A stretch of DNA of 64,000 nt from Flavilitoribacter nigricans DSM 23189 = NBRC 102662 (GCF_002646595.1 NZ_PDUD01000019.1:109128-173127), one strand, 5' to 3'. Positions 2,892-30,425 are shown, numbered from the stretch's first letter. Translations and numbers: made by a program. Notes: generated by a model from the sequence alone, not told the origin.

Positions 2892-3010
2892 TAGGGTACG
2901 CTGTATTGCCCATTGTGGATCTCAGGCCGGAACGGCCTGGTGTCCACCCTCTCCTGGCAAAACTAACCAATCCAATTCAAAGAAGGATGCAACTGTAATT
3001 TCGGTGGGTA

Positions 3011-3283: not shown

Positions 3284-3710
3284 GCTTAATGGTTTTAGTA
3301 AGGTTAAGAAGTGCAGATGGTCTCAAGCTTAAAGTACAGGACACGATGGATTGTTCGTTCCGGACCACAATTAGTCTGAACTTTTTCCGATGTTTAAGTA
3401 TTTGGGAAAGGCGGAATGGATAAAGATTGGGGAATCAATCAAAGTCGCTAATAAAACGAAGCTGAAGAATAACTTATTATACGCCCCGCTAATTTGAAAG
3501 GTTGCGATCGGGGGTGAATTTTGGGTAATTCCGGCCCGGGCACCCGGTGTAAAAAACAACACCTAATCTGGCATCTAGACTGATAATCAATGCTTTAATA
3601 TACGTTTTTTTTTGCGGGTAGATTTTCCTATTGCCCATTTTAGGACAGGCGTTTTTTAACAATCGATAAAATTAGACTATCTACAGATCAGCAGCTCTCT
3701 GCATTCCCGT

Positions 3711-4373
3711 TTAACGCAGGACTTCCACTTCCGATACCCGCTCAAAAGCTTTCACTTCCCACTCCCGGCGCCGTTGCATCGCGATCATTTTGAATCCGGC
3801 GGCTTCGACCATTGCTTCGATCTTACCGGCGGGGTGAATGAAGGACCGAAACTGGCCTCCTCTGATCTTGCGGATCTTCTCCACCACAACGTGCACCAAA
3901 CGTACCCACCAGACTTCTCGGGGAATACTGTAAACGTACCAGCGACGGGCCTTGCTCAGCGAATGCCGGACGAGCCCTTCGTAATCTTCATAACAACAGA
4001 TCACTTTGTCGAGCGTCACCAGATCCGCCGGGTCTACGGTGGCGTGTAATTCCGTAAAATCACCCAGTTTGGCGTCAATCTGTCCGGTCAATTCCCTGTT
4101 TGTAGCTTCCTGGAGAAAAGTTTGCCGGTACCCGGCCGCAATATCGACATAGGTAGCCGTGGCCAGTCCCCGGTTAAAGGACTCCAGGATCATCGCACCG
4201 ATCCCGGCTCCGATATCGAGTTGGGTCCTTCCCCGGAGGGGCAGTTGCTGTAAGACCGCCAAAAAAGGTCGCGAACTCTTTTTCACGCCCCCCGCCAGGT
4301 AATCTTTCATCTCCTTCGCGGCGCTGGCGTCATCAAAAGTTTGTTGGTAAGCCTGATTACAGCAAGAGTCCAT
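3711..4373 (-). CDS. class I SAM-dependent methyltransferase
   Basis: Glycine-rich SAM-binding motif 'LDIGAGIGAM' at the expected position in a 220-aa protein. Confidence 0.7.
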   Translation of the reverse strand: MDSCCNQAYQQTFDDASAAKEMKDYLAGGVKKSSRPFLAVLQQLPLRGRTQLDIGAGIGAMILESFNRGLATATYVDIAAGYRQTFLQEATNRELTGQIDAKLGDFTELHATVDPADLVTLDKVICCYEDYEGLVRHSLSKARRWYVYSIPREVWWVRLVHVVVEKIRKIRGGQFRSFIHPAGKIEAMVEAAGFKMIAMQRRREWEVKAFERVSEVEVLR

Positions 4374-4484
4374 AGCGCAAGATGGTTTGAATAGACGTGA
4401 CCAAAAAACTAACGCGAGTCCGAAACAATCCGGACTCGCGTCAATTTAGCTAATATTCTGGAAAGTCAGCAGCTCGTTCCGCGC

Positions 4485-6860
4485 TTACGGGCGGATCACT
4501 TTTCCTTTTGCTTTCGCTTCCTGCATCGGATTCGGGCGTTCTTCCGTTTTGTGGCTCTTGAACACCTGGAAGCGACTCGGCATTTCCATTACCGGCCAGT
4601 TGTTGTTGCTCTCATCGATGTCCGCCGTTTCCCGGAAAGGGTCCAGGCGAATGGCTTTCACTTCCTTTTCGGTCACAAAAACGCGGGAGAATTTGTCTTC
4701 ATTCTTCCGCCAGACCTGTGCCGGCAGGCGCTCCACTTTGGTGGTGCCGTCTTCAAAAGTGAATTCCAGGATCACCGGCATTACCAGACCACCCTTATTG
4801 CTGAAATACAGCTCGTAGTAGTTCTTGTCGCCGAATTTTTCCGTTTTTTCCTTTTTGCTCAGGGTCTCCGCGTACAGCTCTGTTTTCACCATAGTGACGG
4901 AATCGGCCGTTTCCCAGGGCTTATATTCGGTGTAGAAATCCACCAGCTCTTCGTCTTTCTCTATGGAGAATTCCAGGCCTTCTTCGCGGTTACGCTTCTT
5001 GGAAATGTGCTCGTAAGGCTTATCCCTTTTCACCGGATAGCTTACCTCGCGGGTTTCCGGATCACTCTCCAGGTCGACCTTGTACCACTGGATGCTGTCC
5101 AGGGAAATATCAACCGCTTCGGTGGTATAGAACCAACCGCGCCAGAACCAGTCCAGATCCACCGCACTGGCATCTTCCATGCTGCGGAAGAAATCAGCCG
5201 GAGTGGGGTGTTTGAACGCCCAGCGACGGCTGTACTCCTTGAAGGCATAGTCAAACAGTTCGCGACCCATGACGGTTTCCCGCAGGATGTTCAGCGCGGT
5301 AGCCGGTTTGGCGTAGGCATTCGGTCCGAACTGTACGATGTTTTCGCTATTGGTCATGATCGGTTCCAACAGATCCTTTTCCGCTTTCATGTAATCTGTG
5401 ATGGCGTAAGCCGGGCCCCGGCGGGAAGGATAGTTGTTGTCGAACTCCTGCTCGGTCAGGAACTGCAGGAAAGTATTGATCCCTTCGTCCATCCAGGTCC
5501 ACTGGCGTTCGTCACTGTTGATGATCATCGGGAAATAGTTGTGCCCCACTTCGTGAATGATCACACCGATCGCGCCGTACTTGGCCCGTTCGGTGTAGGT
5601 ACCGTCCTCTTCCGCACGACCGTAGTTGAAACAGATCATCGGATATTCCATACCGTTGGAAGCCTCAACGGAGATAGCTACCGGGTAGGGATAAGGAATG
5701 GTGTATTTGGAATAGGTCTTCAGCGTATGAGCGACCGTTTTGGTGGAATAGCGGTTGTAGATCGGATAAGCCTCTTTGCCGTAGTAGCTCATCGCCATCA
5801 CCCGCCGGCCGTCTTCGGTGAAGTGAGGCATGGCATCCCAGACGAATTTCGGGCTGGCCGTCCAGGCAAAGTCCCTTACGTTATCCGCTTTGTAGATCCA
5901 GGTTTTGGTGTTGGTAGCCTTTTTGGCTTTTTCTGTGGCTTTGGCTTCATCCAGGGTAACGATCTCGATGGGTTCTTTAGCCGTTTTGGCCTGCTCCCAA
6001 CGTTTCAACTGGGCCGGAGTCAGTACCGTGGAGTAATTCAGACACTCGCCGGTAGAGCCGACTACGTGGTCTTCCGGCACGGTCATTTTCACGATAAAGT
6101 TACCGAAAGTCAGCGCGAATTCTCCCCGTCCGGTGAACTGCTTGTTTTGCCATCCTTCCACATCACTGAACACACAGAGTCTTGGATACCACTGCGTTAT
6201 CGTAAAGATATAGTCATCTTCTTCTTCAAAATGCTCGTATCCACCCCGACCGCGGAAATAAGGATTCATCCGGTCGGTGATGTAATAGTGCCAATCCACA
6301 TTGAAGGCGAAAGTCTCTCCCGGCTTGAGCGGCTGTGGCAGATCCACCCGCATCATCGTCTGGTTGATGATGTATTTCAGGGGTTTTCCGTTCGCATCGG
6401 TGATGCTTTCGATCTTGTGTCCGTATTTGGAGCGATCGATATCTTCCAGGCGGCTGAGCGCACCTTCGCTCATGGTATTCCGCAGGCTGCTCGGATCGGC
6501 GTGGTGGCTGTCGGTCAGATCGGAATGTTCGTTTTCATCCAATTGCAACCACAGGTAACGCAGGGTATGTGGCGATTGATTGTAATACGTAATAAGTTCT
6601 TTCCCATCCAGTTTCAGATTATCCACGTCCAGCGTGCACTCAATGTCATAATCGGCACGCTGCTGCCAATATTCCGGTCCGGGTGCGCCGTCCGGTCCCC
6701 GGTAAATGTTGGGATCCGGCAGGGTTTCGCCGAGTTGTTCAAATTTGGTACCGTGATTGGAGCCCGGATTCTGGGCCCAGAGAAAACTGCCGGTGATCAG
6801 AAGGGTGAATACTGTAAGAAACCTTACTACATAAGGACTGTCAAGAAGGTTTTTCATCAT
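4485..6860 (-). CDS. M1-family zinc metallopeptidase (aminopeptidase N-like), secreted
   Basis: Exopeptidase motif 'GMEYPMI' and zinc-binding 'HEVGHNYF' (HEXXH) with a downstream Glu. N-terminal signal peptide. The 775-aa ORF on the opposite strand has no motifs and is a shadow ORF. Confidence 0.85.
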   Translation of the reverse strand: MMKNLLDSPYVVRFLTVFTLLITGSFLWAQNPGSNHGTKFEQLGETLPDPNIYRGPDGAPGPEYWQQRADYDIECTLDVDNLKLDGKELITYYNQSPHTLRYLWLQLDENEHSDLTDSHHADPSSLRNTMSEGALSRLEDIDRSKYGHKIESITDANGKPLKYIINQTMMRVDLPQPLKPGETFAFNVDWHYYITDRMNPYFRGRGGYEHFEEEDDYIFTITQWYPRLCVFSDVEGWQNKQFTGRGEFALTFGNFIVKMTVPEDHVVGSTGECLNYSTVLTPAQLKRWEQAKTAKEPIEIVTLDEAKATEKAKKATNTKTWIYKADNVRDFAWTASPKFVWDAMPHFTEDGRRVMAMSYYGKEAYPIYNRYSTKTVAHTLKTYSKYTIPYPYPVAISVEASNGMEYPMICFNYGRAEEDGTYTERAKYGAIGVIIHEVGHNYFPMIINSDERQWTWMDEGINTFLQFLTEQEFDNNYPSRRGPAYAITDYMKAEKDLLEPIMTNSENIVQFGPNAYAKPATALNILRETVMGRELFDYAFKEYSRRWAFKHPTPADFFRSMEDASAVDLDWFWRGWFYTTEAVDISLDSIQWYKVDLESDPETREVSYPVKRDKPYEHISKKRNREEGLEFSIEKDEELVDFYTEYKPWETADSVTMVKTELYAETLSKKEKTEKFGDKNYYELYFSNKGGLVMPVILEFTFEDGTTKVERLPAQVWRKNEDKFSRVFVTEKEVKAIRLDPFRETADIDESNNNWPVMEMPSRFQVFKSHKTEERPNPMQEAKAKGKVIRP

Positions 6861-8013: not shown

Positions 8014-8877
8014 TTATTTCACGATCTTTTTCAATCCTTTACGATATTCCCGCGGACTGGCACCCGTGATCGCCTTGAACTGCTTGTTGAAGTGCGAAAG
8101 GTTGTTGAAACCACTTTCGTAACTAACGGCAGCGATACTCAAGTGATCGTCGGCGAGCAGACTACTGGCGTGCGCCACCCGGAATTCGTTGACGAATTGA
8201 GTAAACGTTTTATTCGTGAGTTTTTTGAAATAACGACAAAAGGCGGGCACCGTCATATTCGCCAGACGGGCGGCCGTTTCCAACTCTACGTCCGACAGAT
8301 AATTGTGCTCTACGTATTCGTAGATCTTCTCGATCCGCTCGTGATCCTGGCCGTTGACCTCCAGACCGAAACCGCTCGCATTGAGCATCTGGTATTCGGT
8401 AGAGGTAGCCATGGACTGCAGTACGCGCAGAAGCCGTAACATGCGATCAAAATTATCGAACTGCAGCATTTCCCGCAGCAAATCGCCCACCTGCTTTTTG
8501 GTCTCTCCGTTGAAACTCACGCCTACTTTGGAGCGCTCAAACAACTGCTGGATGGACTTCAGCTCCGGCCGGTTCAAAAATTCCGATCCCAGAAACTCTT
8601 CCTTCATCTGTACCACGATCTCGATGTGCCGTTCCTTCAGTCCTTCGGTAAAACCGAAGTGGGGAAGGTTGGGTCCCAGGAAGATCAGATCACCGTCTTC
8701 GTAATAAGAAATATGATCACCTATATGTCGCTTTCCTTTCCCGTTGGAGATATAAACGATCTCGTACTCGGGGTGGAAATGCCAACGGGGTGTATTGCAG
8801 TAATTCAGGTCATCGAAGTACCTCACTGTGAAAGAACTGCCAAACCCCGGTTCTATTTTTTCCAAACGTGCTTTCAT
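8014..8877 (-). CDS. AraC-family transcriptional regulator (N-terminal cupin-like sensor, C-terminal HTH)
   Basis: C-terminal 'AraC signature' region (PAFCRYFKKLTNKTFTQFVNEFRVAHASSLL ... GFNNLSHFNKQFKAITGASPREY). 287 aa. Confidence 0.8.
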   Translation of the reverse strand: MKARLEKIEPGFGSSFTVRYFDDLNYCNTPRWHFHPEYEIVYISNGKGKRHIGDHISYYEDGDLIFLGPNLPHFGFTEGLKERHIEIVVQMKEEFLGSEFLNRPELKSIQQLFERSKVGVSFNGETKKQVGDLLREMLQFDNFDRMLRLLRVLQSMATSTEYQMLNASGFGLEVNGQDHERIEKIYEYVEHNYLSDVELETAARLANMTVPAFCRYFKKLTNKTFTQFVNEFRVAHASSLLADDHLSIAAVSYESGFNNLSHFNKQFKAITGASPREYRKGLKKIVK

Positions 8878-9068
8878 AAGTCAATTCTTTATGATCTCCC
8901 GGCATAGCCTAAAGGAAATCAAGTAAGCAAAAATGACTTGCTCCGATCAATTCAGAAACTTTAGACTGATTAAATTTATTCTTAAGGATACACCTAAATC
9001 GACCAATAAGTTCGATATTAACATACCGCTGCAAATATACTACCTATCTTGGTCAATATTGTTTTATT

Positions 9069-9821
9069 TTGCCGGTATGTTTAGGACGTAAACTAACTTT
9101 TTTTGTCACTTTATCGCTCTATATGCACTTACTAATCGCTTCCGCAACCGGCTTTGAAATTGCTCCGCTGGAAGAATGGCTACAGGCTAACAGTCACAGA
9201 ATCAACAATTTCAGTTATCGCCTCGGACACGCTCAGATCGACCTGCTCATTACCGGCGTAGGAATCCCGCTGAGTGCCTACAGCTTTGGCCGGCTCTTTG
9301 CCAAGCAGTCCTATGATCTGGCGATCCAGGCCGGGATCGCGGGTGCGCTGGACCGGAACCTGGAGATCGGAGAGGTTGTTCAGGTCACCTCCGAAAGCTT
9401 CGGTGACCTGGGAGTGGAAGAGGCGGACGGCAGTTTCACCTCAGCCATCAGCATGGGCCTGATCGATGCGAACCAGCCTCCTTTCGTGAAGGGGCTCCTC
9501 CCCTCGCCTACCGGAACGGGCACTCCGTCCTTTCTCAAATCCGTAACGGGAACTACCGTGATGAAGGTGCACGGGCAGGAAGAAAGCATCACCGCATTCC
9601 GCAATCGTACCGACGCCCAGGTGGAGAGTATGGAGGGCGCCAGCTTTGCCTACGCCTGTCTGCTCGAACAGCAGCCGTTTCTGCAGATCCGGGCAATCTC
9701 CAATTACGTGGAAAAGCGCAACCGGGATGCCTGGGATATCCCCCTGGCGATCGGGAATTTAAACCAGGTACTGATGGATATGGTGCAGATTTTGGCCGCT
9801 ACCGGGAGGGCCGGCGGTTGA
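9069..9821 (+). CDS. nucleoside phosphorylase family I protein, futalosine hydrolase (MqnB)-like or MTA/SAH nucleosidase-like
   Basis: 'HLLIASATGFEI' N-terminus and overall PNP/MTAN-fold pattern. The ORF-track start at 9069 is TTG; the probable real start is ATG at 9123 (MHLLIA...). Confidence 0.5.
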   Translation: MPVCLGRKLTFFVTLSLYMHLLIASATGFEIAPLEEWLQANSHRINNFSYRLGHAQIDLLITGVGIPLSAYSFGRLFAKQSYDLAIQAGIAGALDRNLEIGEVVQVTSESFGDLGVEEADGSFTSAISMGLIDANQPPFVKGLLPSPTGTGTPSFLKSVTGTTVMKVHGQEESITAFRNRTDAQVESMEGASFAYACLLEQQPFLQIRAISNYVEKRNRDAWDIPLAIGNLNQVLMDMVQILAATGRAGG

Positions 9822-9857: not shown

Positions 9858-10706
9858 TTACCTGCCGGCGCGGATCATCCGATCCTTTCCGCCGAGATCC
9901 TGGCGCAATTCGATGCTTTTAAAACCAATGTCTTTAAGCAATTCCACGACCCGCTCTGCATTGTACTCATTCGTCTCGAAAAACAGGTACCCATCGGGTA
10001 GCAACTGCTGAAATGCCAGCAGACCGATCTCCCGGTAAAATACCAGTGGATCGTTTTCGGGCGCGAAGAGGGCCAGTTCCGGTTCGTGGGATAAGACGTG
10101 TTCCGGCATCAGATGCCGTTGGGAAGGTGGGATATAGGGTGGGTTGCTGATGATGTAATCAAAATTGCCCAGTTCGGGCCAACCGGCGGAATTCAGGATA
10201 TCCTGTTCGATCCAGGCGACTTCCACTTCGTTGCGGCGGGCGTTCGCGGCGGCCAGTTCGAGAATATCCGCGCGGACATCCAGTCCGCTTACCGTCAGGG
10301 CCGGGGCTTCGTGCTTGATCGTGATCGGGATACAGCCCGTTCCGGTGCCGATATCCAGTATTTTTTTTTCGGTGGGCTTGCCGGATTGTTTCCAGGTTTC
10401 GAGTACCCAGTGTACCAGTTCTTCCGTCTCCTGCCGCGGGATCAGTACGCGGGGATCTACCCCGAATTTTAGTCCGTAAAAATCCGCTTCGCCCAGAATA
10501 TACTGTACCGGTTCTCCGCGCAGCAGTCGCTGCTGAATGTGGCGGTAGAGCATTTCTTCTTCCGAACTGGCCTCGCGGTCCGGCTGATCCGCCCGGTACT
10601 CGAATACGTCTTCCAGCACAATGCGCGTAATACTGCCGGCTTCACCGGCCTCGTAGCGGCTTTGCAGATTTTCCTGCAGGCCTCTTTTTATTTCGAGCAG
10701 GGTCAA
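9858..10706 (-). CDS. prmC: peptide chain release factor N5-glutamine methyltransferase
   Basis: 'ISNPPY' (NPPY) motif plus SAM-binding 'ILDIGTGTGCI'. TTG start overlapping the upstream TGA stop (TTGA). Confidence 0.8.
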   Translation of the reverse strand: MTLLEIKRGLQENLQSRYEAGEAGSITRIVLEDVFEYRADQPDREASSEEEMLYRHIQQRLLRGEPVQYILGEADFYGLKFGVDPRVLIPRQETEELVHWVLETWKQSGKPTEKKILDIGTGTGCIPITIKHEAPALTVSGLDVRADILELAAANARRNEVEVAWIEQDILNSAGWPELGNFDYIISNPPYIPPSQRHLMPEHVLSHEPELALFAPENDPLVFYREIGLLAFQQLLPDGYLFFETNEYNAERVVELLKDIGFKSIELRQDLGGKDRMIRAGR

Positions 10707-11836
10707 GACAAACGGTTTTTAAAATCCTGGTGATCAAAGGTTTTTACGATCTCCAATTCACCGTCTTCCTGCAGGATGCAGATATTGGGATGTTTGACTC
10801 CATTGAATGTGGTTGTTTTCACCATCGTGTAGTGGATCATATCCTCGAAGACCATCCGGTCGCCAATCTCCAGCGGTTTTTCGAAGGAATAGGCCTCCAT
10901 GTAATCACCGGCCAGGCAACTCACGCCTCCGATACGATAAGTGGGTTTCCCATCAACCGGATCCGTTGCGCCGACGATGCGCGGGCGGTAGGGCATTTCG
11001 AGCGTATCGGGCATGTGTGCGGTAAAAGACACGTCGAGGATCGCGGTCTTTACTCCGTGGTTTTCGATAATGTCGAGGACCGTAGCTACCAGCACACCGG
11101 TTTCCCAGGCAATGGCGCTGCCGGGTTCCAGGATGACCTGCAGGGTATGCCGCTGCCGGAAATCCTGCAATAGTTTCACCAGATGATCCACATCGTAATC
11201 CTTGCGCGTCATCAGGTGGCCACCGCCGAAATTCACCCATTTCAACTGGGGGAAATATTTGGCAAACCGCTTCTCAAAAGCTTGCAGCGTTTTTTCCAGC
11301 GTATAGGATGAACTCTCACAAAGGGTGTGAAAATGCAGACCTTCAATTCCCTCCGGTAGCCGGTCGCCCAGATTGGGGGCTGTTTCTCCCAGACGGGAAA
11401 CCGGAGAAGCGGGATTGTACAAGTCCGTTTCCACTTCGGAATATTCCGGATTCACCCGCAGGCCCATGCTGATGGGTTCGGGATAGTTTTGCACCTGCTC
11501 ATGGTAGCGGTGGAACTGGTTCAAAGAATTAAAGGTGATATGACTGCTGTAGCGCATAATATCCGCAAAATCCTCCGGCAGATAGGCCGGGGAATAAGTA
11601 TAGGCCCGCACGCCCATTTCGTCGTAGATCAAACGGGCTTCATCCAGCGAACTGGCGGTTGCGCCACTCAGGTACTGGCCGACAATGGGGAATACCCGCC
11701 ACATGGAAAAGCCCTTTAGCGCCAGAATGATATCCACACCGGCCTGTTCCCGGACACTGCGGATCAGTTCCAGATTTTTGCGCAGGCGGGCCATTTCGAG
11801 TACAAAAGAGGGAGAAGGTATAGCTTGGTAATTCAA
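10703..11836 (-). CDS. nspC: carboxynorspermidine/carboxyspermidine decarboxylase (PLP fold-type III)
   Basis: N-terminal 'PSPSFVLEMARLRKNLELIRSVREQAGVDIILALKGFSMW' matches the NspC family pattern, and the length of 377 aa fits. Directly downstream of a saccharopine-dehydrogenase-family gene. Confidence 0.75.
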   Translation of the reverse strand: MNYQAIPSPSFVLEMARLRKNLELIRSVREQAGVDIILALKGFSMWRVFPIVGQYLSGATASSLDEARLIYDEMGVRAYTYSPAYLPEDFADIMRYSSHITFNSLNQFHRYHEQVQNYPEPISMGLRVNPEYSEVETDLYNPASPVSRLGETAPNLGDRLPEGIEGLHFHTLCESSSYTLEKTLQAFEKRFAKYFPQLKWVNFGGGHLMTRKDYDVDHLVKLLQDFRQRHTLQVILEPGSAIAWETGVLVATVLDIIENHGVKTAILDVSFTAHMPDTLEMPYRPRIVGATDPVDGKPTYRIGGVSCLAGDYMEAYSFEKPLEIGDRMVFEDMIHYTMVKTTTFNGVKHPNICILQEDGELEIVKTFDHQDFKNRLS

Positions 11837-15029: not shown

Positions 15030-15272
15030 ATGAGACTTCCAATCCAGGTTCAGCCTATCCTTCGGAATCATCTTAATTCCGTCAATCAAGACCGATTAAA
15101 CTTATCCAAGGCCAGACTCCGGCTGCAGGACTGTACCGGCGTACCCAATAATATCGTAGGCTCCTGCTTTGATAGCAACGGCCCGGTGCCGGGCCGGTTT
15201 AACTGTTCTGCATGCTGTGCACTCCGCGGCGCCATCTCTTGGCAGGGCGGTGGGTATGCAGTGGCTTGTTAA
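15030..15272 (+). CDS. small Cys-rich protein (80 aa) with an 'MRLPIQ' leader-like N-terminus; candidate precursor peptide
   Basis: ATG start. N-terminus M-x-L-P-x-Q-x-x-[PA]-[IV] shared with two other small ORFs (16997-17314, 17407-17580). C-terminal third holds 7 Cys (DCTG...GSCF...NCSACCALRGA...AVAC). Confidence 0.45.
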   Translation: MRLPIQVQPILRNHLNSVNQDRLNLSKARLRLQDCTGVPNNIVGSCFDSNGPVPGRFNCSACCALRGAISWQGGGYAVAC

Positions 15273-15366
15273 TTCATAGCCGCAATTATAGTCCTCACCA
15301 TCTTACAGCATGCGGATTAATTCTTTCATGAGCTAATACTAATCTTGAAGTTTATCGCTGCTGGAG

Positions 15367-16152
15367 ATGGTCAATACCGCAAAACATTTCGCGCATTATT
15401 TCTTCCTTAAACCAAAATCATTCAAAATTATGGCAAATTCAATTAATTGGGATTCCGGCCAACTGATCAATCTGAACGTCGGTGACACCGCTACTTGTAA
15501 AGGTGGATTAAACGTTGGCCAGGTCTACGGCTTGTTTTTTTACAACGCAGCAGGTAACGACGCCTCTACGACCGTCAATGTGGTTTGGTCAAATTCCAAC
15601 CCTCCTGTGATGGTCAATGTTCCCGGAACGACCATGAATCAGGGGCTAGCAGCCATTTGCTTTGTAGACGGCAGCCAAACCAATACCGTTTCAGCCTCGG
15701 TTACGCACGGTAATCAGGGAGCAAATGTCCAAGCCTTCATTTGTAGCGTAAAAATGCCAGTAAATACCAGCGGGATCCAGAACACCCAACTTCCTCTGGA
15801 TGGTAATCAGCATCCATTTCATAAGTTTACCCGATTTTATGCAGTACCGGCATCTCACTGGTATTCGGCTCAGATTCAAAGCGATGTTAACCAGTTTATC
15901 AGTGTCCAATTTACCGAATCGAAGGCCAACGTATATATCGTAAATAAAATAGTCGATCCGTCTAACGTAATCAAGTACGCCGGTGACGCCCAGGACTTAG
16001 TGACCGTAAAAACCTCCGACCATCAGTCTATCTCCTTTAATTTGCAAGGCAACGGCCGACAGTTCGTCTGGATGAATGCTGACAGTATTCAAAACAGTCA
16101 GGACGCCACAATTGCAGTGCAATCGCTAAGCAATTTGTTTGCGACTTTGTAA
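15367..16152 (+). CDS. hypothetical N/S/T/Q/V-rich protein, predicted beta-rich, no signal peptide
   Basis: ORF directly downstream of the 80-aa peptide ORF. Probable start MANSINW near 15430. No recognisable domain. Confidence 0.45.
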   Translation: MVNTAKHFAHYFFLKPKSFKIMANSINWDSGQLINLNVGDTATCKGGLNVGQVYGLFFYNAAGNDASTTVNVVWSNSNPPVMVNVPGTTMNQGLAAICFVDGSQTNTVSASVTHGNQGANVQAFICSVKMPVNTSGIQNTQLPLDGNQHPFHKFTRFYAVPASHWYSAQIQSDVNQFISVQFTESKANVYIVNKIVDPSNVIKYAGDAQDLVTVKTSDHQSISFNLQGNGRQFVWMNADSIQNSQDATIAVQSLSNLFATL

Positions 16153-16166
16153 GTAAACAGTGCTAA

Positions 16167-16194
16167 AAATGCCGGCTCTTGTAAGCCGGCATTT
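16167..16194. terminator. bidirectional rho-independent terminator between convergent genes
   Basis: Perfect 10-bp stem AAATGCCGGC/GCCGGCATTT with an 8-nt loop, followed by gcattttag. Confidence 0.6.
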
Positions 16195-16285
16195 GCATTT
16201 TAGAAAGTTTGGTTTTTCCTTTTCAATCCTGAATCTAAGTTCCAATATCTTTAGTTTGACCATTACCGTCTTAAAGTTCCACCTG

Positions 16286-16828
16286 CTATTTTTTATTATT
16301 CACCAGAGCAAATATCCAACTCCATAGTGGATTCCCCATCGGAAACCTTGCTCCGCTTCCCCAGCGATAGTTGACCGGTGGCCTCAACACCGGAAGTTTC
16401 ATTCCATCTTCCCGTGCCGCAACTGCTGGAACCACCATCAACAAAGTAAAATGGAAAATCCCTACTTTCCCACTTTGCTCCTGGTCTCCCTCCTCCCTTA
16501 CCCTCACTTCCTGTTCCAATATAAAGCGTCCTCCCGGCTGTGCAGGCACTCCGTGGAATAGTTCGTTATCTCCCTTATCGTTGGTTACCGGATCCTTTTC
16601 GATCACCGTTATTGTTATCTTTCGCCGGATTTCGTCCAGAGCCGGGTCGAAATCCCCTTCTGCGATCAGTTCAGGTGATTCAAATAATTTTTCTTCTCCG
16701 TTTCGGAGCAACATATCTTTTGTATAATCTGTCCGAAGGGCACGGATAGCGATAGACAGGTCTTTTCCCATATTATCTCCAGTGTATCGGATCGATTGCA
16801 GGTAAAGTTTAACCTTTGGAGTATTCAT
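16286..16828 (-). CDS. hypothetical protein (180 aa)
   Basis: ORF downstream, on the minus strand, of the Cys-rich peptide genes. No known motif. Confidence 0.4.
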   Translation of the reverse strand: MNTPKVKLYLQSIRYTGDNMGKDLSIAIRALRTDYTKDMLLRNGEEKLFESPELIAEGDFDPALDEIRRKITITVIEKDPVTNDKGDNELFHGVPAQPGGRFILEQEVRVREEGDQEQSGKVGIFHFTLLMVVPAVAAREDGMKLPVLRPPVNYRWGSGARFPMGNPLWSWIFALVNNKK

Positions 16829-16996
16829 AAACGGAAGCTTTTAAATGAGGAAATGAACAGAGGGCAGAAAGACATTCCTTCTGCCCCGGGTCTGTTGAAG
16901 ACTTATACACGACGTAGGGTGGAATTATCCTGATGGTATTTGACAGCTCAGGACCGAACCTGCTCCTACATCTGTATACATCTTCCCTATGCGGCC

Positions 16997-17314
16997 TTAG
17001 CCACAAAAACTTTTCAATACTGCAGGTATTGGAATACCGATCTTTTCTGCGCCGGATACCGCCGTACAGATCACGGTTTTGGCTCCTCCTTCAATACAAT
17101 CTTCACAGTCGGATACGAAACTGGCAAAAGCTGGTAAACAGAGCGGAAGATCTTCCGGAAAACCCAGGGGGTCACAGGGGCCAACAACCAGAAGACCAAA
17201 TTTGCCGGCACATTTCAATCCTTCGCCCAAACTGCAGCTGGTCTTTAGGTGACGTCGAAGCAAGGGTAGATCACGAGATTTTAGCACCGCGTGGTGTTGA
17301 TTGGGAAGTTTCAT
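16997..17314 (-). CDS. small Cys-rich protein (105 aa) with an 'MKLPNQ' leader-like N-terminus; candidate precursor peptide
   Basis: ATG start. Nine Cys. Start context ATAATTA-ATG-AAA-CTT-CC is nearly identical to that of the 57-aa ORF. An 8-bp hairpin (16862-16886) lies downstream. Confidence 0.45.
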   Translation of the reverse strand: MKLPNQHHAVLKSRDLPLLRRHLKTSCSLGEGLKCAGKFGLLVVGPCDPLGFPEDLPLCLPAFASFVSDCEDCIEGGAKTVICTAVSGAEKIGIPIPAVLKSFCG

Positions 17315-17356
17315 AATTATTGGATTTTATGATGAGCAGAACTAGATAAATGACAA

Positions 17357-17384
17357 TGAGGCAAGAGGAGCACCTCTTGCCTCA
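17357..17384. terminator. strong hairpin between the two tandem small Cys-rich ORFs; candidate attenuator or terminator
   Basis: Perfect 12-bp stem TGAGGCAAGAGG/CCTCTTGCCTCA with a 4-nt loop AGCA. Flanked by moderately T-rich sequence on both strands. Confidence 0.55.
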
Positions 17385-17406
17385 TACCAAATTTTAAACT
17401 GAAGTG

Positions 17407-17580
17407 CTAGCAGACGGTTGCATTGCAGGCCGCAATACAAAGCGTTTTTGCTATACCGGTCAGCATGCTGCAGCCCGCCATACAAATATCACAAGGGATA
17501 GATGACAACTGCATTCCGTTGGAGCGGTAATTCACTTTGCTGGCCTTCTGTACAGGCACAGCTTGCTTTGGAAGATTCAT
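17407..17580 (-). CDS. unannotated small Cys-rich ORF (57 aa, MNLPKQAVPVQKASKVNYRSNGMQLSSIPCDICMAGCSMLTGIAKTLCIAACNATVC); candidate precursor peptide
   Basis: Translated by hand from the minus strand. ATG at 17580, TAG at 17407-17409. It is below the 60-aa cutoff of the supplied track. It lies 37 nt downstream of the S8 protease stop. Confidence 0.45.
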   Translation of the reverse strand: MNLPKQAVPVQKASKVNYRSNGMQLSSIPCDICMAGCSMLTGIAKTLCIAACNATVC

Positions 17581-17616
17581 AATTATGAAATTTTAAAGGT
17601 GAAAAAATGAATGGAA

Positions 17617-19659
17617 TTAGTGGATATACCAGGAGCGCACGCTACCGATAGTAACCGGCACGACATCACTGACATCGACAGTATAGCGGTACACTTTTCT
17701 GGCCTTTTCGTAGCGTTGCAGGGGATCAAAGAAGATCAGTTGTACATCGTATCCATCGACGCCGGGACGTACGATCGGACTCTTCGTTACTTTGATATCA
17801 GTGAGTTGGAGTGAATCTGCAGCTGCTGCCTGGAAAACACTATTGGCAGTGAAAGCATTAGTAGCCGCATAGTTGAGCGCCCGTTCCTGTGGAGTAAGTC
17901 CGAAGTTGCGGAATTCGTAGTAAACACGTTCCAGGAAATTAGCCAGTGCTTCAATGGTAGAGGTATCGCCCACTGCTTCTGCCAGGGCTTGGGTGGACCA
18001 TTCGGCCATTCCCCGCAGAGAAGGTACGATAGCCGGAACTACCTGCCCGTTGAGCAAAGTCACTTTACCCGCAATTATACCCGGCACAGCAACTCTTTCC
18101 ACACCGTTCTCCTCTAATTGTCCTTTCAATGAATCGACCAGTCGCTCGTAGGTAAGGTGGGCGTATGCTCCCAGGGGATGAATGGCGTAAATGGGCGTTC
18201 CCTCCTGTTCCAACGTCCAGATAAGCTCCGTAGCTTCGTACATATTGCCTGATTCCAGGTGATCAATTACCACCTGAGGATCGTTCAGGTTATCATTGAT
18301 ATGTTGTAGGAATGAGTCGCGCCGGGATTCATTGACAAAGTCATAGCCAATGGTACCCAGAGCGTATACTTTCTGGTGAGTGGCACCGGCATTTCCTTTC
18401 TTTCCACCACAGCTACATCCTCCACTTTCTTTTTTCCCACCGCAACCACATCCGCAGGAGGGCTCGATCTCAGAGGGAGAAATACGGGGCAAATCGGTGG
18501 TAACAGTGATATCTGATATGGCCTGGCTCAAGGATTCGTTAGTTTTGGCTTCGGAAAAGTTTTCCATTGGTTGTAATTCTAATGATTCTGAAAGTTGAAC
18601 CTGCACGGAAGCACCTTCATTCCGTACATCCTGGTCCAGTTCGGATAGTTTTTTATGGACATTTTCCATGGTAGAAGAATTTTTTATGTTAATTAATGGA
18701 GAATTGGTATCGATTGGAGTGGCCAGCTGTGCTGCCCCTGAGGTGAAGTCTTCCATCCGTTCTGCCGGTCTCACCTTCGCCGGAAGGATCAACTCCTGTA
18801 AAGCTGCTTGAACATTGAGCGTGCCTCGCAAAAAGCGACTGCACTCTTCGATATTTCGATCCGGACAGGGATTTGCCGTCTGAAGCAAAATATTCTTTAT
18901 GCGATGGGGATCAGGTTGTTCGCCTCTTTTTATTAGCAGACTGAGTAATAAGGCCACCACCCCGGAAACGTAGGGAGTAGCAAAGCTGGTACCGGATTTT
19001 GGTCCGTACCGACCGTTGGTCAAGGCCCCGTTAATATTTCTGCCCGGAGCGAGCAGTCCGTTGGTGAGATAGGCATCGCCCCAGTTGCTGTCAGGAAGAG
19101 GTATACCGGAAATATCCATTGCTCCTACCGTTAATACGGTAGGTACAGCAGCTGGGACATGTAGGCAACGACATCCGTTATTTCCAGCGGCCGCAACGAC
19201 CAGTATATTTTCTTTATCACACTGCTCTAAAGCACGCGCCAATACCTCATCCGGTTCACCAAAATCATCCAGTTCCCCGGCGCTGATATTGATTACGTGT
19301 ACTTTATGTTGAATCGCTTTGTTAATTGCCCTGGCCAGATCGAGTTGAGTAGCCAACTGTACTTTCTTATCAGACGTCATCTCAAATAGCGGAATGATAA
19401 TTCCGGTCACTTGGGGCGCAATCCCTTTGACCAGCGAATGATGCTGGCCAAAAATGATACTGCTGACGTGGGTTCCGTGATCGGAAGGTTCGCAGCTGGC
19501 CTCATCATCCCCGTATATGCTAACCTGGGACAATTGAGCTCCAGCCAGCGCCGGATGATCCAACTCCGCCGGACCGTCGATAATAGCTATGCGAATATCA
19601 GGTTCACCCAGGGTCAGTGCCCACAGGCGACCAATATCCTCGTGGACTTGATCGTACAT
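17617..19659 (-). CDS. subtilisin-like (S8) serine protease with a ~300-aa C-terminal domain resembling the PatA/PatG-family C-terminal DUF
   Basis: Catalytic triad motifs 'IAIIDG' (Asp), 'DHGTHVS' (His), 'GTSFATPYVSG' (Ser). No signal peptide. Gly/Cys-rich linker 'SCGCGCGGKKESGGCSCGGKKGNAG'. The C-terminal domain carries 'VYALGTIGYDFVNESRRDSF', recalled to be characteristic of cyanobactin protease C-terminal domains. Confidence 0.75.
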   Translation of the reverse strand: MYDQVHEDIGRLWALTLGEPDIRIAIIDGPAELDHPALAGAQLSQVSIYGDDEASCEPSDHGTHVSSIIFGQHHSLVKGIAPQVTGIIIPLFEMTSDKKVQLATQLDLARAINKAIQHKVHVINISAGELDDFGEPDEVLARALEQCDKENILVVAAAGNNGCRCLHVPAAVPTVLTVGAMDISGIPLPDSNWGDAYLTNGLLAPGRNINGALTNGRYGPKSGTSFATPYVSGVVALLLSLLIKRGEQPDPHRIKNILLQTANPCPDRNIEECSRFLRGTLNVQAALQELILPAKVRPAERMEDFTSGAAQLATPIDTNSPLINIKNSSTMENVHKKLSELDQDVRNEGASVQVQLSESLELQPMENFSEAKTNESLSQAISDITVTTDLPRISPSEIEPSCGCGCGGKKESGGCSCGGKKGNAGATHQKVYALGTIGYDFVNESRRDSFLQHINDNLNDPQVVIDHLESGNMYEATELIWTLEQEGTPIYAIHPLGAYAHLTYERLVDSLKGQLEENGVERVAVPGIIAGKVTLLNGQVVPAIVPSLRGMAEWSTQALAEAVGDTSTIEALANFLERVYYEFRNFGLTPQERALNYAATNAFTANSVFQAAAADSLQLTDIKVTKSPIVRPGVDGYDVQLIFFDPLQRYEKARKVYRYTVDVSDVVPVTIGSVRSWYIH

Positions 19660-19765
19660 CGTTAAAAATTATTTTCCTGTTTGATAAGAAGGGATACTGT
19701 AGAAAGATGACCTTACAAAGGTATAGAGCGCTACCAACTAGGATTTGTCCGTACTGTGCATCATT

Positions 19766-20476
19766 TTACCATTTTGGAGCGAGATTCGGATTACCCTTAC
19801 CATAAATACTAGAGAATCTGGACGGCGCACAACCGAATTCCTTTTTAAAACTTCGGCAGAAACTGGTTTGATTGCTATATCCTACCTCGTCCGAAACTGC
19901 TCCCACCGAAGCTACATTGCTGAGTAATAGTTTTGCCGCGTATTGTAAACGAATAACACGGATAAGGTTTCCGGTTGAACAATTTATGATTATCCGTGTC
20001 CGCCGGTTGAGTTGTGAATTACTTAAACCAATACGATGAGCCAGAAAGGAAACATCCAGCTGAGGAGCGCTGATATACCGGAAAATCAACCGCACCAGCT
20101 TTCGAACAAAAATCTCCTCTTGAGTATCCAATGAAATAGTTAATTCAAGCCAATTGAAAGCTAAAGTCATTAAATTATCAACCCCGCATTCCCGATTATT
20201 TAAACTGCGATACCAAGCCGACTCAATATTATTCACCAAATTTCCAGATCCGGTTTCGGATAGCTCTTGGTCTTTAATGTAGATCGTTCTCCTTAGATCT
20301 TTTCGACCGTATAGCCAGCCCCTCCCACGGGGTTCTGCTTGCTGCTGAAATTTATTTTTTTCGAAAAATGCATACCGTTGGATATCCTCCCAGGACGCAA
20401 CATTATGGCGTTCCAAATTTGACTTTATCATAATTTTCAGGCTTGGATGTTTGTAAGTTACCGCTGTCCAGGGCAA
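19766..20476 (-). CDS. AraC-type HTH domain transcriptional regulator
   Basis: C-terminal dual HTH region (IGLSNSQLNRRTR ... GYSNQTSFCRSFKKEFGCAPSRF). Confidence 0.65.
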   Translation of the reverse strand: MPWTAVTYKHPSLKIMIKSNLERHNVASWEDIQRYAFFEKNKFQQQAEPRGRGWLYGRKDLRRTIYIKDQELSETGSGNLVNNIESAWYRSLNNRECGVDNLMTLAFNWLELTISLDTQEEIFVRKLVRLIFRYISAPQLDVSFLAHRIGLSNSQLNRRTRIIINCSTGNLIRVIRLQYAAKLLLSNVASVGAVSDEVGYSNQTSFCRSFKKEFGCAPSRFSSIYGKGNPNLAPKW

Positions 20477-20635
20477 AGCAGCTTCTGTGAACAGATGTCC
20501 TTCCGGACCAGTCCCTTAAATGAAATCAGCGGTGAGATTAGATCTTGGATTTAAACAAAGTTAACGTTCCGTATTCAGCTGCACTTGCACATTTCACGCA
20601 TCCATTTGCATTATCTGCGCAAGCTGTTTACGGGT

Positions 20636-21049
20636 TTAACGGGCAGCTCTCCGGCGAAACGTTGAGGGTGTACAATTGAACTGCTTCTTAAACCGGCGGC
20701 AAAAATAAGCCTGGTCCCGAAAGCCGCAGCGGTAGGCGATGTCTCCGATACTGGCCACATTGCTTTCCAGCAGACCGGCCGCGTGCCGGAGTCGAATTTC
20801 CAGGATCAGTTTTCCGGCGGATTGACCGATCAGTTTGTTGAGTTTGCGATTGAGCTGAGAAACGCTCAGGTGGATATTATCGGCCAGGTCCTGTACACTG
20901 AAATGCTCGTTCGCGAGGTTGCGTACGATGTGGTGCCGCACTTTTTCCAGAAATTGTTCATCCTGGGAGATGAGGTACCTGGTGATGCTTTGGGGCCATT
21001 GAAATTTGTCGGTAGTTAATGGTTTAAAATTGGGGGGTATTTCGTTCAT
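20636..21049 (-). CDS. short AraC-type HTH protein (137 aa, no obvious sensor domain)
   Basis: HTH_18/AraC signature (IHLSVSQLNRKLNKLIG ... GFRDQAYFCRRFKKQFNCTPSTF). Only about 30 residues precede the DNA-binding domain. Confidence 0.6.
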   Translation of the reverse strand: MNEIPPNFKPLTTDKFQWPQSITRYLISQDEQFLEKVRHHIVRNLANEHFSVQDLADNIHLSVSQLNRKLNKLIGQSAGKLILEIRLRHAAGLLESNVASIGDIAYRCGFRDQAYFCRRFKKQFNCTPSTFRRRAAR

Positions 21050-28258: not shown

Positions 28259-28906
28259 ATGCAAACTATACTAAGTTGGTTAATTAATATTACACTCCTG
28301 ATTTTAGCAGTAAATGTCTTTGCTTTTTTGAAGGCATTGAAATATTTGCCCTCATTTCATAAATGGTTTGCTTTTTTTCTGACAACTGGTTTAATTGTCC
28401 AGATATTTGCACAAATATTATCGATTTCAGCGATAAACAACCTTCCATTACTTCATTTCTATACCTTTTTTGAATTCATCTTTTTATCCTTATTCTATCA
28501 AAAGCTACTTCAGCAGATCCCCGCTAAAAATTTCGGCTATTTCATTATAGCGATCTGTGTCATTATTATTTTAAACACCTGCTTTATTCAGTCCTTATTT
28601 AGCTTCAACAGTATAGCGAAAACAATCACCCACGCTGCCTATATTGGCTATGCATTATTTTATTTTTTCGGACGCATAAAGTCAGGATCGGTATTTATGA
28701 ATTTGATTAATTCAGCGGTGCTGATATATTATTCAGGGAGCCTGTTTATCTTTATGTTTACCAATATACTGACCTATTTTGAAGAACTCATTCCATACTA
28801 TGATTATCTTTGGATTAGCAATGCATTACTCTATCTAATCTTCCAGTTAATCGTATTATACGGGCTATGGAAAACGGTTTACAGGCCAATGAAATTTTCA
28901 CCATGA
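28259..28906 (+). CDS. polytopic membrane protein (about 5-6 TM helices), low-GC; possible sensor or accessory to the downstream histidine kinase
   Basis: Highly hydrophobic 215-aa ORF with AT-rich codons. Overlaps the HK start by 40 nt in another frame. Confidence 0.5.
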   Translation: MQTILSWLINITLLILAVNVFAFLKALKYLPSFHKWFAFFLTTGLIVQIFAQILSISAINNLPLLHFYTFFEFIFLSLFYQKLLQQIPAKNFGYFIIAICVIIILNTCFIQSLFSFNSIAKTITHAAYIGYALFYFFGRIKSGSVFMNLINSAVLIYYSGSLFIFMFTNILTYFEELIPYYDYLWISNALLYLIFQLIVLYGLWKTVYRPMKFSP

Positions 28907-29676
28907 TCATGCTAGGGATCGTGATCATGTTATGTCTGGCCGTAGCCTTTGTTTTACTGGCCAACCGATCTCAGAAAAGGATCTACCGGGAACAAATGAA
29001 GGCCAAGGCCCTGCAACTCGCCCACCAGGAACAACTGCTCTACAGTACGATCCTGACCCAGGAAGAGGAGCGCAAGCGTATCGCCAAGGACCTGCACGAT
29101 GAGATCGGTTCCAAGCTTAATGTGATCAACCTCAACCTCCACCGCTTGCGCAAATTTGCTACCGAACCGACCGTGATCACCGATACCGTCCACGACCTCT
29201 TTGAGATCATTGGCAATACCATCGATACGACGCGGCGCATTTCTCACGATCTGCTGCCGCCAACCCTCGAAAATTTCGGTTTGCGGGAAGCCGTCCGTGA
29301 GCTGTGCGAAAGTTATCCCGGCGGCACCGCGCCGGAAGTAGTGTTTGATCTGCTGCAGGATCATCCACTCCGGGTGGATAAATCGATCGAACTGAATGTT
29401 TTCCGCATCCTGCAGGAGTTGATCAATAACTCTATCCGCCACGGCCGGGCAAGCCGGATCGGGATCCGATTGTGGCTGAAACCGGATGGCATTTCACTCG
29501 GTTACCAGGATAACGGCCGGGGGTTCGATCCGGAAAAGGTCCGGGAAAATCCGGGTTTGGGACTGCAAAACATCCAAAGCCGGATCAATATGATCGGAGC
29601 GGATTACCAGCTCCAGTCCCAGCCGGGCAAGGGGGTACAGGTCCAGATCGATTATCGGATCCATAAAGTACCGTAG
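28867..29676 (+). CDS. sensor histidine kinase, HisKA_3/NarL-partner type
   Basis: Single TM, then coiled coil and H-box 'LHDEIGSKLNVINLNL', HATPase_c motifs ('LQELINNSIRHG', 'DNGRGFD', 'GLGLQNIQSRI'). Confidence 0.8.
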   Translation: MENGLQANEIFTMIMLGIVIMLCLAVAFVLLANRSQKRIYREQMKAKALQLAHQEQLLYSTILTQEEERKRIAKDLHDEIGSKLNVINLNLHRLRKFATEPTVITDTVHDLFEIIGNTIDTTRRISHDLLPPTLENFGLREAVRELCESYPGGTAPEVVFDLLQDHPLRVDKSIELNVFRILQELINNSIRHGRASRIGIRLWLKPDGISLGYQDNGRGFDPEKVRENPGLGLQNIQSRINMIGADYQLQSQPGKGVQVQIDYRIHKVP

Positions 29677-29714
29677 CACCCGGAATTCTCCTTGAAAAAA
29701 GAACAAACCTATAA

Positions 29715-30425
29715 TTGCAAATAAATACTCCGTTTAAACTTATGATCAATCTAGCCATAGCCGAAGACGAAGCCTTATTCCGCAAGGGCATGATCGCTTT
29801 GCTCGAAGGAGAACCCGATCTCCGGATCTGTTTTGAAGCCGGGGACGGACAGGAACTCCTGCAAAAACTGAAATCCGCCGACCTGCTGCCCGATATCCTG
29901 CTGCTCGATCTGAAAATGCCGAAACTCAACGGCATCGAAGTAGCCAAGATCATTCGCGAAGAGTACCCCAGTCTGCGGATCATCGTGCTGTCTACCTATT
30001 TCAGCAAAGCTTTCATCATCAATATGATCGAACTGGGAGCCGGCGCCTACCTCCCGAAAAACGCCACGCCCGACCAGGTGATCAGTAGTATTCACGAGGT
30101 GTATCAGAAAGGCTTCAGTTACGATCAGGCGGTCATGGAGGTGATCCGCGATAACATGATCCATAAAACCCGCCCCAAAGCAGACCTGCAGACCGGCTAC
30201 GACATTACTGCCCGCGAAAGTGAGGTCCTTCAGTTGATCTGTGAGGAATACACCACCCCCGAAATCGCCGAACGACTCTATATCAGTCCGCGCACCGTGG
30301 ACGGTCACCGGAATAACCTGCTGCAAAAACTCGGCTGCCGCAATGTTGCGGGGCTGGTGGTCTTTGCCCTGCAGCACCAGCTCGTAACGATTCGCCCTGA
30401 AACTTTTTGGTTCCGAAAGGGGTAA
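29715..30425 (+). CDS. response regulator, NarL/LuxR family (REC plus LuxR-type HTH)
   Basis: Receiver Asp in 'LLLDLKMP'. C-terminal 'LTARESEVLQLICEEYTTPEIAERLYISPRTVDGHRNNLLQKLG' is a LuxR HTH. Confidence 0.85.
   Translation: MQINTPFKLMINLAIAEDEALFRKGMIALLEGEPDLRICFEAGDGQELLQKLKSADLLPDILLLDLKMPKLNGIEVAKIIREEYPSLRIIVLSTYFSKAFIINMIELGAGAYLPKNATPDQVISSIHEVYQKGFSYDQAVMEVIRDNMIHKTRPKADLQTGYDITARESEVLQLICEEYTTPEIAERLYISPRTVDGHRNNLLQKLGCRNVAGLVVFALQHQLVTIRPETFWFRKG

Follow-up and report, generated by a model that had tools for sequence, protein, structure and literature searches.

What does a cyanobactin-type protease do in surroundings where no partner enzyme of a cyanobactin pathway was found and where three small genes for Cys-rich peptides lie close by? 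The question is raised by a locus of Flavilitoribacter nigricans (Bacteroidota, Saprospirales, Lewinellaceae), situated in a stretch of 64,000 nucleotides (the window, to which all coordinates refer unless a locus is named) whose protease is 100% identical to the NCBI protein of the same species. The answer proposed here, to which as a whole we assign a probability of roughly 0.6, is a minimal cyanobactin-type maturation module. It would consist of one cytoplasmic PatA-type subtilisin, composed of an S8 domain and a domain of unknown function (DUF), and of three precursor genes, each encoding a cyanobactin leader motif, a short spacer with a putative PatA-type recognition site at its end, and a Cys-rich core extending up to the stop codon. 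The protease with its parts and the three candidate precursors, given with their lengths in amino acids (aa), are located as follows; the order in the linker was seen in a model by AlphaFold2 (AF2):

17617..19659, (-) strand: PatA-type cyanobactin maturation protease, 680 aa, with S8 domain, disordered linker and PatG_D/PatG_C DUF
18790..19635, (-) strand: catalytic S8 domain (aa ~9-290), typed as PatA or N-terminal protease, with triad D28/H61/S225 and oxyanion N160
18442..18468, (-) strand: IEPSCGCGC, aa 398-406, in the otherwise disordered linker, found by motif count, Cys conservation and AF2 order
17626..18375, (-) strand: C-terminal cyanobactin DUF, aa ~429-678, PatG_D and PatG_C, assigned by Pfam matches and the PatG DUF structure 4uvq
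17407..17580, (-) strand: precursor A, 57 aa, 6 Cys, leader MNLPKQAVPVQK, putative cut after ..GMQLS(26), 31-aa core
16997..17314, (-) strand: precursor B, 105 aa, 8 Cys, leader MKLPNQHHAVLK, ~79-aa core with a GPCDPxGxPEDL motif
15030..15272, (+) strand: precursor C, 80 aa, 6 Cys, leader MRLPIQVQPILR, ~46-aa core (..CFDSNGPVPGRFNCSACCALRGAISWQGGGYAVAC)

The initial annotation had described the same open reading frames (ORFs), with A and B following the protease on its strand and C on the other one, and translation returned all of them as described there. Two of its measures have to be adjusted: the third paralogue is indeed found on the opposite strand, yet 1.7 kb and not 2 kb from the 105-aa gene, and the C-terminal domain, correctly taken for the PatA/PatG DUF and not for a domain of some unrelated family (Pfam PatG_D and PatG_C; 178.5 bits to 4uvq over the last ~250 aa), comprises about 250 aa (residues ~429-678) instead of ~300.

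Concerning the protease, the model TIGR03895 ('PatA/PatG family cyanobactin maturation protease') is matched with 626.8 bits (cutoff 421.05) over positions 1-605 of the 606 in the profile, and the Pfam domains are S8 at residues 22-263, PatG_D at 430-528 (1.7e-17) and PatG_C at 568-677 (9.5e-35). The best solved structures for the S8 domain are those of PagA (4h6w, 301.7 bits) and PatA (4h6v, 280.6 bits), which align almost gap-free over residues 7-290, whereas for the macrocyclase domains of PatG and PagG the score stays at ~152 bits and the alignment starts only at residue 56; the macrocyclase-specific insertion is not present in the S8 domain when compared with the latter two. This pattern marks the protein as a PatA-type leader peptidase without macrocyclase insert. 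Identity of the S8 domain to PatA and PagA amounts to 52%, which is above its median of 48.5% to 78 other members of the family, and D28, H61, N160 and S225 are invariant among 107 aligned homologues. No signal peptide is found in the protease, and its AF2 model has a mean predicted local distance difference test score (pLDDT) of 81.5. By every sequence feature examined, the protein is thus a genuine cyanobactin protease of the PatA type. As a protein it is nothing new, since NCBI already names the gene correctly, the identical protein being listed as 'PatA/PatG family cyanobactin maturation protease [Flavilitoribacter nigricans]'. In addition to the CxC pair of the linker, a second, invariant CxC pair (C163/C165 in AAAGNNGCRC; window 19165-19173 on the (-) strand, residues 163-165) is situated in the S8 domain and shared by the whole set of 107 aligned homologues; it might serve as a disulfide or in metal or redox chemistry.

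The three small ORFs begin with a common N-terminus, M-x-L-P-x-Q-x-x-[PA]-[VI]-x-[RK], as had been noticed before. Translated in all six frames, the complete window of 64 kb contains the motif LPxQxxx[IVLF]x[RK] exactly three times, each time at residue 3 of A, B or C, such that the leader motif spans residues 3-12 in all three. Orthologues in the closest protease relatives, i.e., the loci L001 (77% protease identity) and L002 (60%), served as reference for the ratio of nonsynonymous to synonymous substitution rates (dN/dS). For precursor A, dN/dS ranges from 0.14 to 0.18 (0.14 against L001) with near-saturated synonymous sites; for precursor C, whose last 35 core residues are identical to L001, it is 0.15, and for the protease 0.09 in the same comparison. 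Precursor B exhibits proportions of nonsynonymous differences (pN) of 0.13-0.23 versus 0.75-0.81 at synonymous sites (pS) and is 79% and 63% identical to its orthologues in L001 and L002, respectively. Judged by these substitution patterns, the three ORFs are real genes under purifying selection. In public data precursor A is a 'hypothetical protein', and the exact sequences of B and C were not found in a collection of 15 billion proteins, so that these two have apparently never been called as genes.

The common N-terminus is also that of the canonical patellamide precursor: the N-terminus of the PatE leader, represented by NILPQQGQPVIR, a precursor-derived ligand peptide used in PMC5108345, shares the pattern LPxQxxPVxR with the peptides of the module. 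The further anatomy of the family was derived from 89 distinct peptides. An M two residues before the L/I of the motif and an R at +9, both outside the search pattern, are found in 77 peptides each. The leader has a median length of 28 residues, and in 39 of the 89 peptides it is followed by G[IVLM]x[PA]S, which would be expected in 1.16 according to shuffled sequences; the first Cys usually lies 0-5 residues past this cleavage-like site. The consensus site of the family, G-[VIL]-x-[PA]-S, resembles the site reported for PatA, G(L/V)E(A/P)S (PMC10885120). Numbers of Cys are predominantly even (in 71 of the 79 peptides with Cys), six being the commonest: 10 peptides possess no Cys, 9 possess two, 9 four, 39 six, 12 eight, 2 ten, and 8 an odd number.

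For the A-type peptides of this family, profile search yielded 92 database matches at E<=1, each of them representing one cluster at 90% identity, whereas a word-indexed search with the 57-aa peptide alone yielded 3; every named match is labelled 'hypothetical'. The consensus of 80 aligned sequences, in which S26 and all six Cys are conserved at 90% or more, reads MxLPxQxxPVxR...GVxxS/GIACTLCxAACxxLSGxAKTLCxxACNATVC (the slash denotes the putative cut), and the Cys of the core of precursor A are spaced C-x2-C-x3-C-x10-C-x3-C-x4-C. According to AF2, the leader is a coil (pLDDT 63-68) and the core consists of two helices (28-37 and 43-55; pLDDT ~85), each with three Cys on or beside it. The A-type core is therefore predicted to form a helical hairpin, for which a Foldseek comparison with the PDB retrieved no significant match (best, a saposin at E=4.2). 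The B type is rare, with 8 representatives in 1.84 billion proteins, 5 of which carry the full leader motif and 2 a degenerate one. A leaderless copy of its core makes up the C-terminal end (~65 residues) of P0218, a protein of 415 aa, which suggests an autonomous folded domain that other proteins can bear. In L017 (Oxalobacteraceae) and L022 (Shewanella hanedai), cores homologous to that of precursor C are located downstream of a PatA-like protease.

Do protease and peptides belong together? One genome per species of GTDB was scanned with a profile built from a 15-sequence protease alignment, a query with the single protease having found nothing, and 546 loci encoding a protease relative were obtained. 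Among the best 80 of these 546 loci, 37 are cyanobacterial and 43 are not; the latter belong to Gamma-, Beta- and Alphaproteobacteria, Acidobacteriota, Planctomycetota, Bacteroidota, Clostridia, Hydrogenedentota and two archaeal lineages. The three closest relatives exhibit the following gene orders:

L001, protease identity 77%: two AraC genes, protease, A, B, ORF175, and C on the opposite strand
L002, protease identity 60%: AraC, protease, A, B, third uncalled peptide
L003, protease identity 57%: protease, then a single 70-aa Cys-rich ORF with the same leader

Across the loci, ORFs with the strict motif are concentrated behind the protease: 91 are situated in the 273 kb that lie no more than 4 kb downstream of it on the same strand, versus 8 in the other 2.09 Mb. 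Four of these eight are genuine, and the enrichment is at least 87-fold, with 48 of 83 loci positive; a relaxed motif reveals peptides in about 24 further loci, and several of the remaining ones are truncated contigs. In the reverse direction, all four A-type peptides considered (from Janthinobacterium, Aureispira and two metagenomes), which were chosen for the length of their contigs alone, lie directly downstream of a gene with S8, PatG_D and PatG_C domains, in neighbourhoods that are otherwise unrelated. All-against-all clustering of the ORFs of 84 loci returned the protease as the sole universal gene. Besides protease, peptides and scattered regulators, kinases and transporters (a C39-ABC exporter in 4 of the 84), no family is widely recurrent, and neither YcaO, PatG, PatF, a radical-SAM enzyme nor a transporter is conserved with the module; 77 loci contain a single ORF of the protease family and 7 a second copy, which is full-length in 5. 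That peptides and protease form one functional module is, on this evidence, nearly certain, and the module is peculiar neither to F. nigricans nor to Bacteroidota.

These results also bear on the further claims and checks of the initial annotation, whose observation is confirmed and whose reading is largely upheld. The small ORFs are conserved under purifying selection and are located beside the protease in the relatives at 77%, 60% and 57% identity and across phyla, and the minimal architecture suspected there agrees with a Pfam search of window 0-36 kb, which contains no modifying enzyme: YcaO, LanB/C and radical-SAM proteins are missing as it had reported, and so are prenyltransferases and ABC transporters. 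What it overlooked is the PatE leader motif, the PatA (and not PatG) type of the protease, the name that NCBI gives to it, and the spread beyond Bacteroidota.

Concerning the relationship between the two partners, the peptides are probably cleaved substrates of the protease. Homology and the conservation of the site suggest that leader recognition is the task of the S8 domain, whose cut would fall immediately ahead of the first Cys and release linear cores of about 31, 79 and 46 residues from A, B and C, respectively. The putative sites in the window's own precursors are GMQLS/S (A), HLKTS/C (B) and LRLQ(D)/C (C), with cuts predicted behind S26 in both A and B and behind Q33 or D34 in C. It could be argued that the small proteins are instead partners of the protease, i.e., trans inhibitors, chaperones or metal/redox peptides tethered by the leader, while the protease acts elsewhere and possibly on its own linker. 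Such partners would suit the Cys-rich, cytoplasmic character of the peptides, for which no export system is encoded, as well as the substrate-like IEPS/CGC of the linker, an AF2-ordered beta strand amid disorder. The cores, however, are hypervariable, occur in up to 7 copies per locus and have unrelated folds between loci, whereas leader and site are conserved, and this is the signature of leader-directed substrates and not of a dedicated partner; moreover, canonical PatA cuts precursors with the same N-terminal leader motif and a similar site. We regard a partner role as very improbable.

The linker motif itself deserves a closer description. A sequence of the form [IVL]-x-[PA]-[SA]-x(0-2)-C-x-C is situated between S8 and DUF in about 52 of 79 proteases, as compared with 1.9 expected from shuffles, and was also noted in the proteases of L004-L083; C404 and C406 are conserved in at least 90% of the 107 homologues. 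According to AF2, residues 301-425 are disordered save for residues 397-402, with a beta strand at 398-400. The motif resembles a substrate cleavage site followed by Cys, and IEPSCGCGC possibly serves for autoprocessing, as a pseudo-substrate or, through its CXC, in redox or metal chemistry. The ordered strand of the model would fit docking as a pseudo-substrate or autoprocessing, and remains a lead.

If the leader is removed, what becomes of the core? According to the module explanation, nothing would be cyclised or heterocyclised, since there is no follower and, in 36 kb of the window, no gene for a macrocyclase, heterocyclase or prenyltransferase. In known PatE leaders, a LAELSEEAL-like element serves as the recognition element of the heterocyclase. 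No such element is found in the leaders of A, B and C, nor is there a C-terminal recognition sequence of the AYDG type, the cores running to the stop codon. These features likewise bear on the idea that the locus is a fragment of a classical cyanobactin pathway, with genes for heterocyclase, macrocyclase and prenyltransferase situated elsewhere and azoline macrocycles as products. Protease and leader motif are both of the cyanobactin type, as such a fragment would require; however, recognition element, follower and AYDG-type site are all lacking, genes for the three enzymes were not found in 36 kb of the window, no other enzyme family is widely recurrent in the 84 loci, and cores of 31-79 residues contrast with the 6-20 residues of known cyanobactins (PMC4663559). 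Taken together, a dispersed classical pathway is hardly credible.

The organisation found in F. nigricans is thus most similar to one part of the cyanobactin pathways (pat, tru, pag), with which it shares the PatA-type S8 domain plus DUF (52% identity to PatA and PagA; TIGR03895 above cutoff), the leader N-terminus and, by family consensus though degenerate in the window, a putative G-[VIL]-x-[PA]-S-type site ahead of the core. Despite this similarity, there are differences: the module is without PatD heterocyclase, PatG macrocyclase/oxidase and PatF prenyltransferase, the window containing a single protease-family ORF and no second protease of the PatG macrocyclase kind. Its precursors have neither heterocyclase element nor C-terminal recognition sequence and possess one long Cys-rich core (31-79 aa) up to the stop instead of cassettes of 6-20 residues; its host belongs to Bacteroidota, and many phyla other than cyanobacteria contain such a module. 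In operation it resembles the initial proteolysis in the making of cyanobactins, and as a pathway it falls outside the classical definition.

Among other known systems, linear cyanobactins (aeruginosamides, viridisamide, muscorides) likewise lack a macrocycle and have their leader removed by a PatA homologue. Such peptides are of very small size and bear many modifications (azoles, prenyl and methyl groups), with YcaO as well as prenyl- and methyltransferases encoded in their clusters, whereas the module has long, Cys-rich cores and no tailoring enzyme; muscoride MusD is covered in PMC10885120. The S8 leader peptidases of class I lanthipeptides, NisP and ElxP, the latter of which is cytoplasmic (PMC10885120), are also subtilisins dedicated to leader removal from a ribosomal peptide. 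The module, in contrast, is without LanB/LanC or other lanthionine machinery, its protease belongs to the PatA clade and bears the cyanobactin DUF, and its leader motif is a different one. From double-glycine-leader bacteriocins it differs in that the window contains neither a GG leader nor, as far as 0-36 kb was scanned, an ABC transporter, the C39-ABC type being confined to the four loci mentioned. Conotoxins, plant alpha-hairpinins and defensin-like bacteriocins offer an analogy only: a conserved N-terminus is cut off from hypervariable cores with even numbers of Cys, and a disulfide-stapled hairpin is predicted for the A type, whereas homology is not detectable (best Foldseek E 4.2) and a signal peptide is lacking. 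SCIFF/sactipeptide six-Cys peptides are similar in being short and in the C-x2-C-x3-C of their N-terminal half; unlike them, the module has no conserved radical-SAM maturase, no NCBIfam match including any SCIFF model, and Cys in both halves of the core, which fits disulfides rather than sactionine links. The sactipeptide/SCIFF reading was rejected; a lone radical-SAM gene near L084 is isolated, lies on the opposite strand and is not conserved in the 84 loci.

The cores would be expected to fold with all Cys in disulfides, three of which would staple the helical hairpin in A; this pairing is inferred from the even Cys counts together with the AF2 model. For the final products being plain disulfide peptides, the odds fall somewhat short of even. 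A putative role as secreted antimicrobial, toxin or signal is the most likely one. It is also conceivable that the cores undergo further modification that has gone unrecognised, carried out by DUF and CXC linker or by enzymes encoded elsewhere, which would make them true RiPPs (peptides made on the ribosome and modified after translation) with a new Cys chemistry. PatG_D and PatG_C are kept in all protease homologues though PatD, PatG and PatF are absent, the isolated PatG DUF does not bind PatE (PMC4259220), the linker CxC pair is conserved at 90% or more, and the module is cytoplasmic with neither Dsb nor exporter nearby. The fold of the DUF, on the other hand, has no known catalytic relatives, even Cys counts are what simple pairing predicts, and 10 of the 89 cores are Cys-free, which excludes Cys chemistry as a role of the DUF throughout the family. 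Such a further modification appears unlikely.

Several findings weigh against the module as proposed here, with substrates cleaved in the cytoplasm and cores closed by disulfides. The protease is without signal peptide, and its neighbourhood encodes neither an exporter nor a thiol oxidase; the site and means of core oxidation are unexplained, the cytoplasm of a Gram-negative cell being normally without disulfide formation. Retention of the DUF, although every plausible partner enzyme is absent, means that it may perform an unrecognised step. By nuclear magnetic resonance (NMR), the isolated PatG DUF showed no binding of PatE (PMC4259220); binding of the conserved leader motif by the DUF was set aside after that negative result and is kept as a possibility for PatA-type DUFs or for the full-length enzyme. 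The sites GMQLS, HLKTS and LRLQD of the window are degenerate as compared with the family consensus. For precursors of the PatE type, one would also expect a family match, yet none from NCBIfam or Pfam was obtained for A, B or C even at E<=10; the PatE precursor model of NCBIfam is TIGR03678.

Besides these main features, the number and kind of precursors vary among the loci. In L002, a third leader-bearing peptide (8875-9081, (+) strand; 68 aa, MKLPNQNQPIGLG..., 6 Cys) follows after A and B and is uncalled in the source annotation; under-annotation of leader-bearing Cys-rich peptides seems to be general. Up to 7 precursors stand in a tandem array behind one protease in L063 (Microcoleus; 2281-5240) and four nearly identical ones in L074 (Okeania; 10003-10881), which shows cassette-like expansion of cores. 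The cyanobacterial loci L025, L030, L031, L032 and L035 contain, 0-4 kb downstream of the protease, peptides whose GVEAS site is perfect and whose amphipathic cores are free of Cys (e.g., ..GVEAS/AWYDTVLDVVKTVAPIAAPILTSLI), adjoined by methyltransferase-like (conserved) and patatin-like genes; these constitute a different sub-family of the protease-precursor module. In Archaea, a PatA-like protease with an adjacent MK[IL]PNQS... Cys-rich ORF is found in L058 (Nitrososphaerales; 3021) and L075 (Thermoproteota; 5619, (-) strand), such that the module crosses the boundary between bacteria and archaea.

The neighbourhood of the module in the window comprises the following further features, helix-turn-helix being abbreviated as HTH:

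20636..21049, (-) strand: AraC-type regulator, HTH only, 137 aa (HTH_18 1.4e-22, HTH_AraC 5.1e-16); syntenic in L001 and L002
19766..20476, (-) strand: another AraC-type regulator (236 aa), immediately upstream of the protease (HTH_18 7.7e-17); syntenic in L001
17356..17385, (-) strand: perfect 13-bp hairpin between A and B, free energy -26.6 kcal/mol, z -4.35; terminator-like
16861..16887, (-) strand: 12-bp terminator-like hairpin after B; L001 likewise has a 12-bp hairpin after its B gene
16286..16828, (-) strand: 180-aa ORF downstream of B, hypothetical protein PHN05970.1, no Pfam/NCBIfam family

Protease, A and B would probably form one transcription unit. The two upstream genes had rightly been read as AraC-type regulators, HTH_18 being matched by both; the family is present in 16 of the 84 loci, and the pair are candidate regulators and no universal part of the module. 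A HisKA_3 histidine kinase with a LuxR-type response regulator is situated directly upstream of the protease in L003 (6565-8041) and L085 (2050-3491), and a similar pair occurs in the window at 28867-30425, 9 kb off; such a kinase-regulator pair may take the place of the AraC pair in regulation. The stem between A and B is perfect as initially described, yet 13 and not 12 bp long. Hairpins exist at the equivalent position after A in L001 and L002, with a differing sequence in L002, and the one in the window is likely a terminator, an attenuator or an mRNA-stabilising stem. Together, the hairpins after A and B may tune the mRNA level of the precursors or its ratio to that of the enzyme. A scan for sigma-70 promoters (13 found versus 10.2 expected) was uninformative, the model being ill-suited to promoters of Bacteroidota.

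Membership of the 180-aa ORF in the module is doubtful: it is 55% identical in L001 (dN/dS 0.16) and absent from L002 and all other loci. The 261-aa ORF at 15367-16152 on the (+) strand was rejected as a component, as it shares no homology with the ORFs that occupy its position in L001; the sole match in family searches is a weak one to DUF5969 (E=0.13). Gene C is followed by non-homologous ORFs rich in Ser, Thr, Asn and Val, i.e., by 261 aa in the window and by 254 and 164 aa in L001 (7200-8493, (-) strand), the 164-aa ORF exhibiting a faint match to PixA (inclusion-body protein), and the slot after gene C looks like a variable cargo slot. The G+C content is 45-48% over window 14-22 kb versus 50-58% on the flanks; together with the patchy spread of identical core types across phyla, this is compatible with horizontal acquisition.

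No description of the protease-precursor module was found in the literature, including by searches with literal peptide strings, most subscription journals lying outside the search. With the protease annotated already, what is new is a widespread unannotated module, which is worth more than a curiosity of one genome. It also brings to light a peptide family that lacks annotation, and two of the window's three genes have apparently never been called. Cyanobactins are treated as a cyanobacterial speciality built on heterocyclisation and macrocyclisation, and the module redraws the boundaries of this family: the two most conserved and least understood parts of the pathway, namely the DUF-bearing PatA protease and the leader motif at the precursor N-terminus, form a self-sufficient module in at least seven other phyla and in Archaea. 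The roles of DUF and leader motif are unresolved in PMC4259220 and PMC5108345, and a two-gene system allows them to be studied free of other pathway enzymes.

Tentatively, and with the odds rather against it, the finding might be extended to a wider picture. PatA-type protease and leader-bearing precursor would then constitute an ancient two-gene module of prokaryotes, including Archaea, which makes hypervariable disulfide-rich linear peptides as a bacterial counterpart of conotoxin-like families. The cyanobactin pathways of cyanobacteria would be a later elaboration of it, DUF and leader N-terminus would act together, and the IEPS/CxC linker would be an autoprocessing or autoinhibitory switch or a built-in thiol-oxidising element. 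For the family as found here, the hypervariable and presumably disulfide-rich cores are plausible antimicrobials, toxins or signals, and the protease could serve as a leader-dependent, sequence-tolerant tool to release designed Cys-rich peptides.

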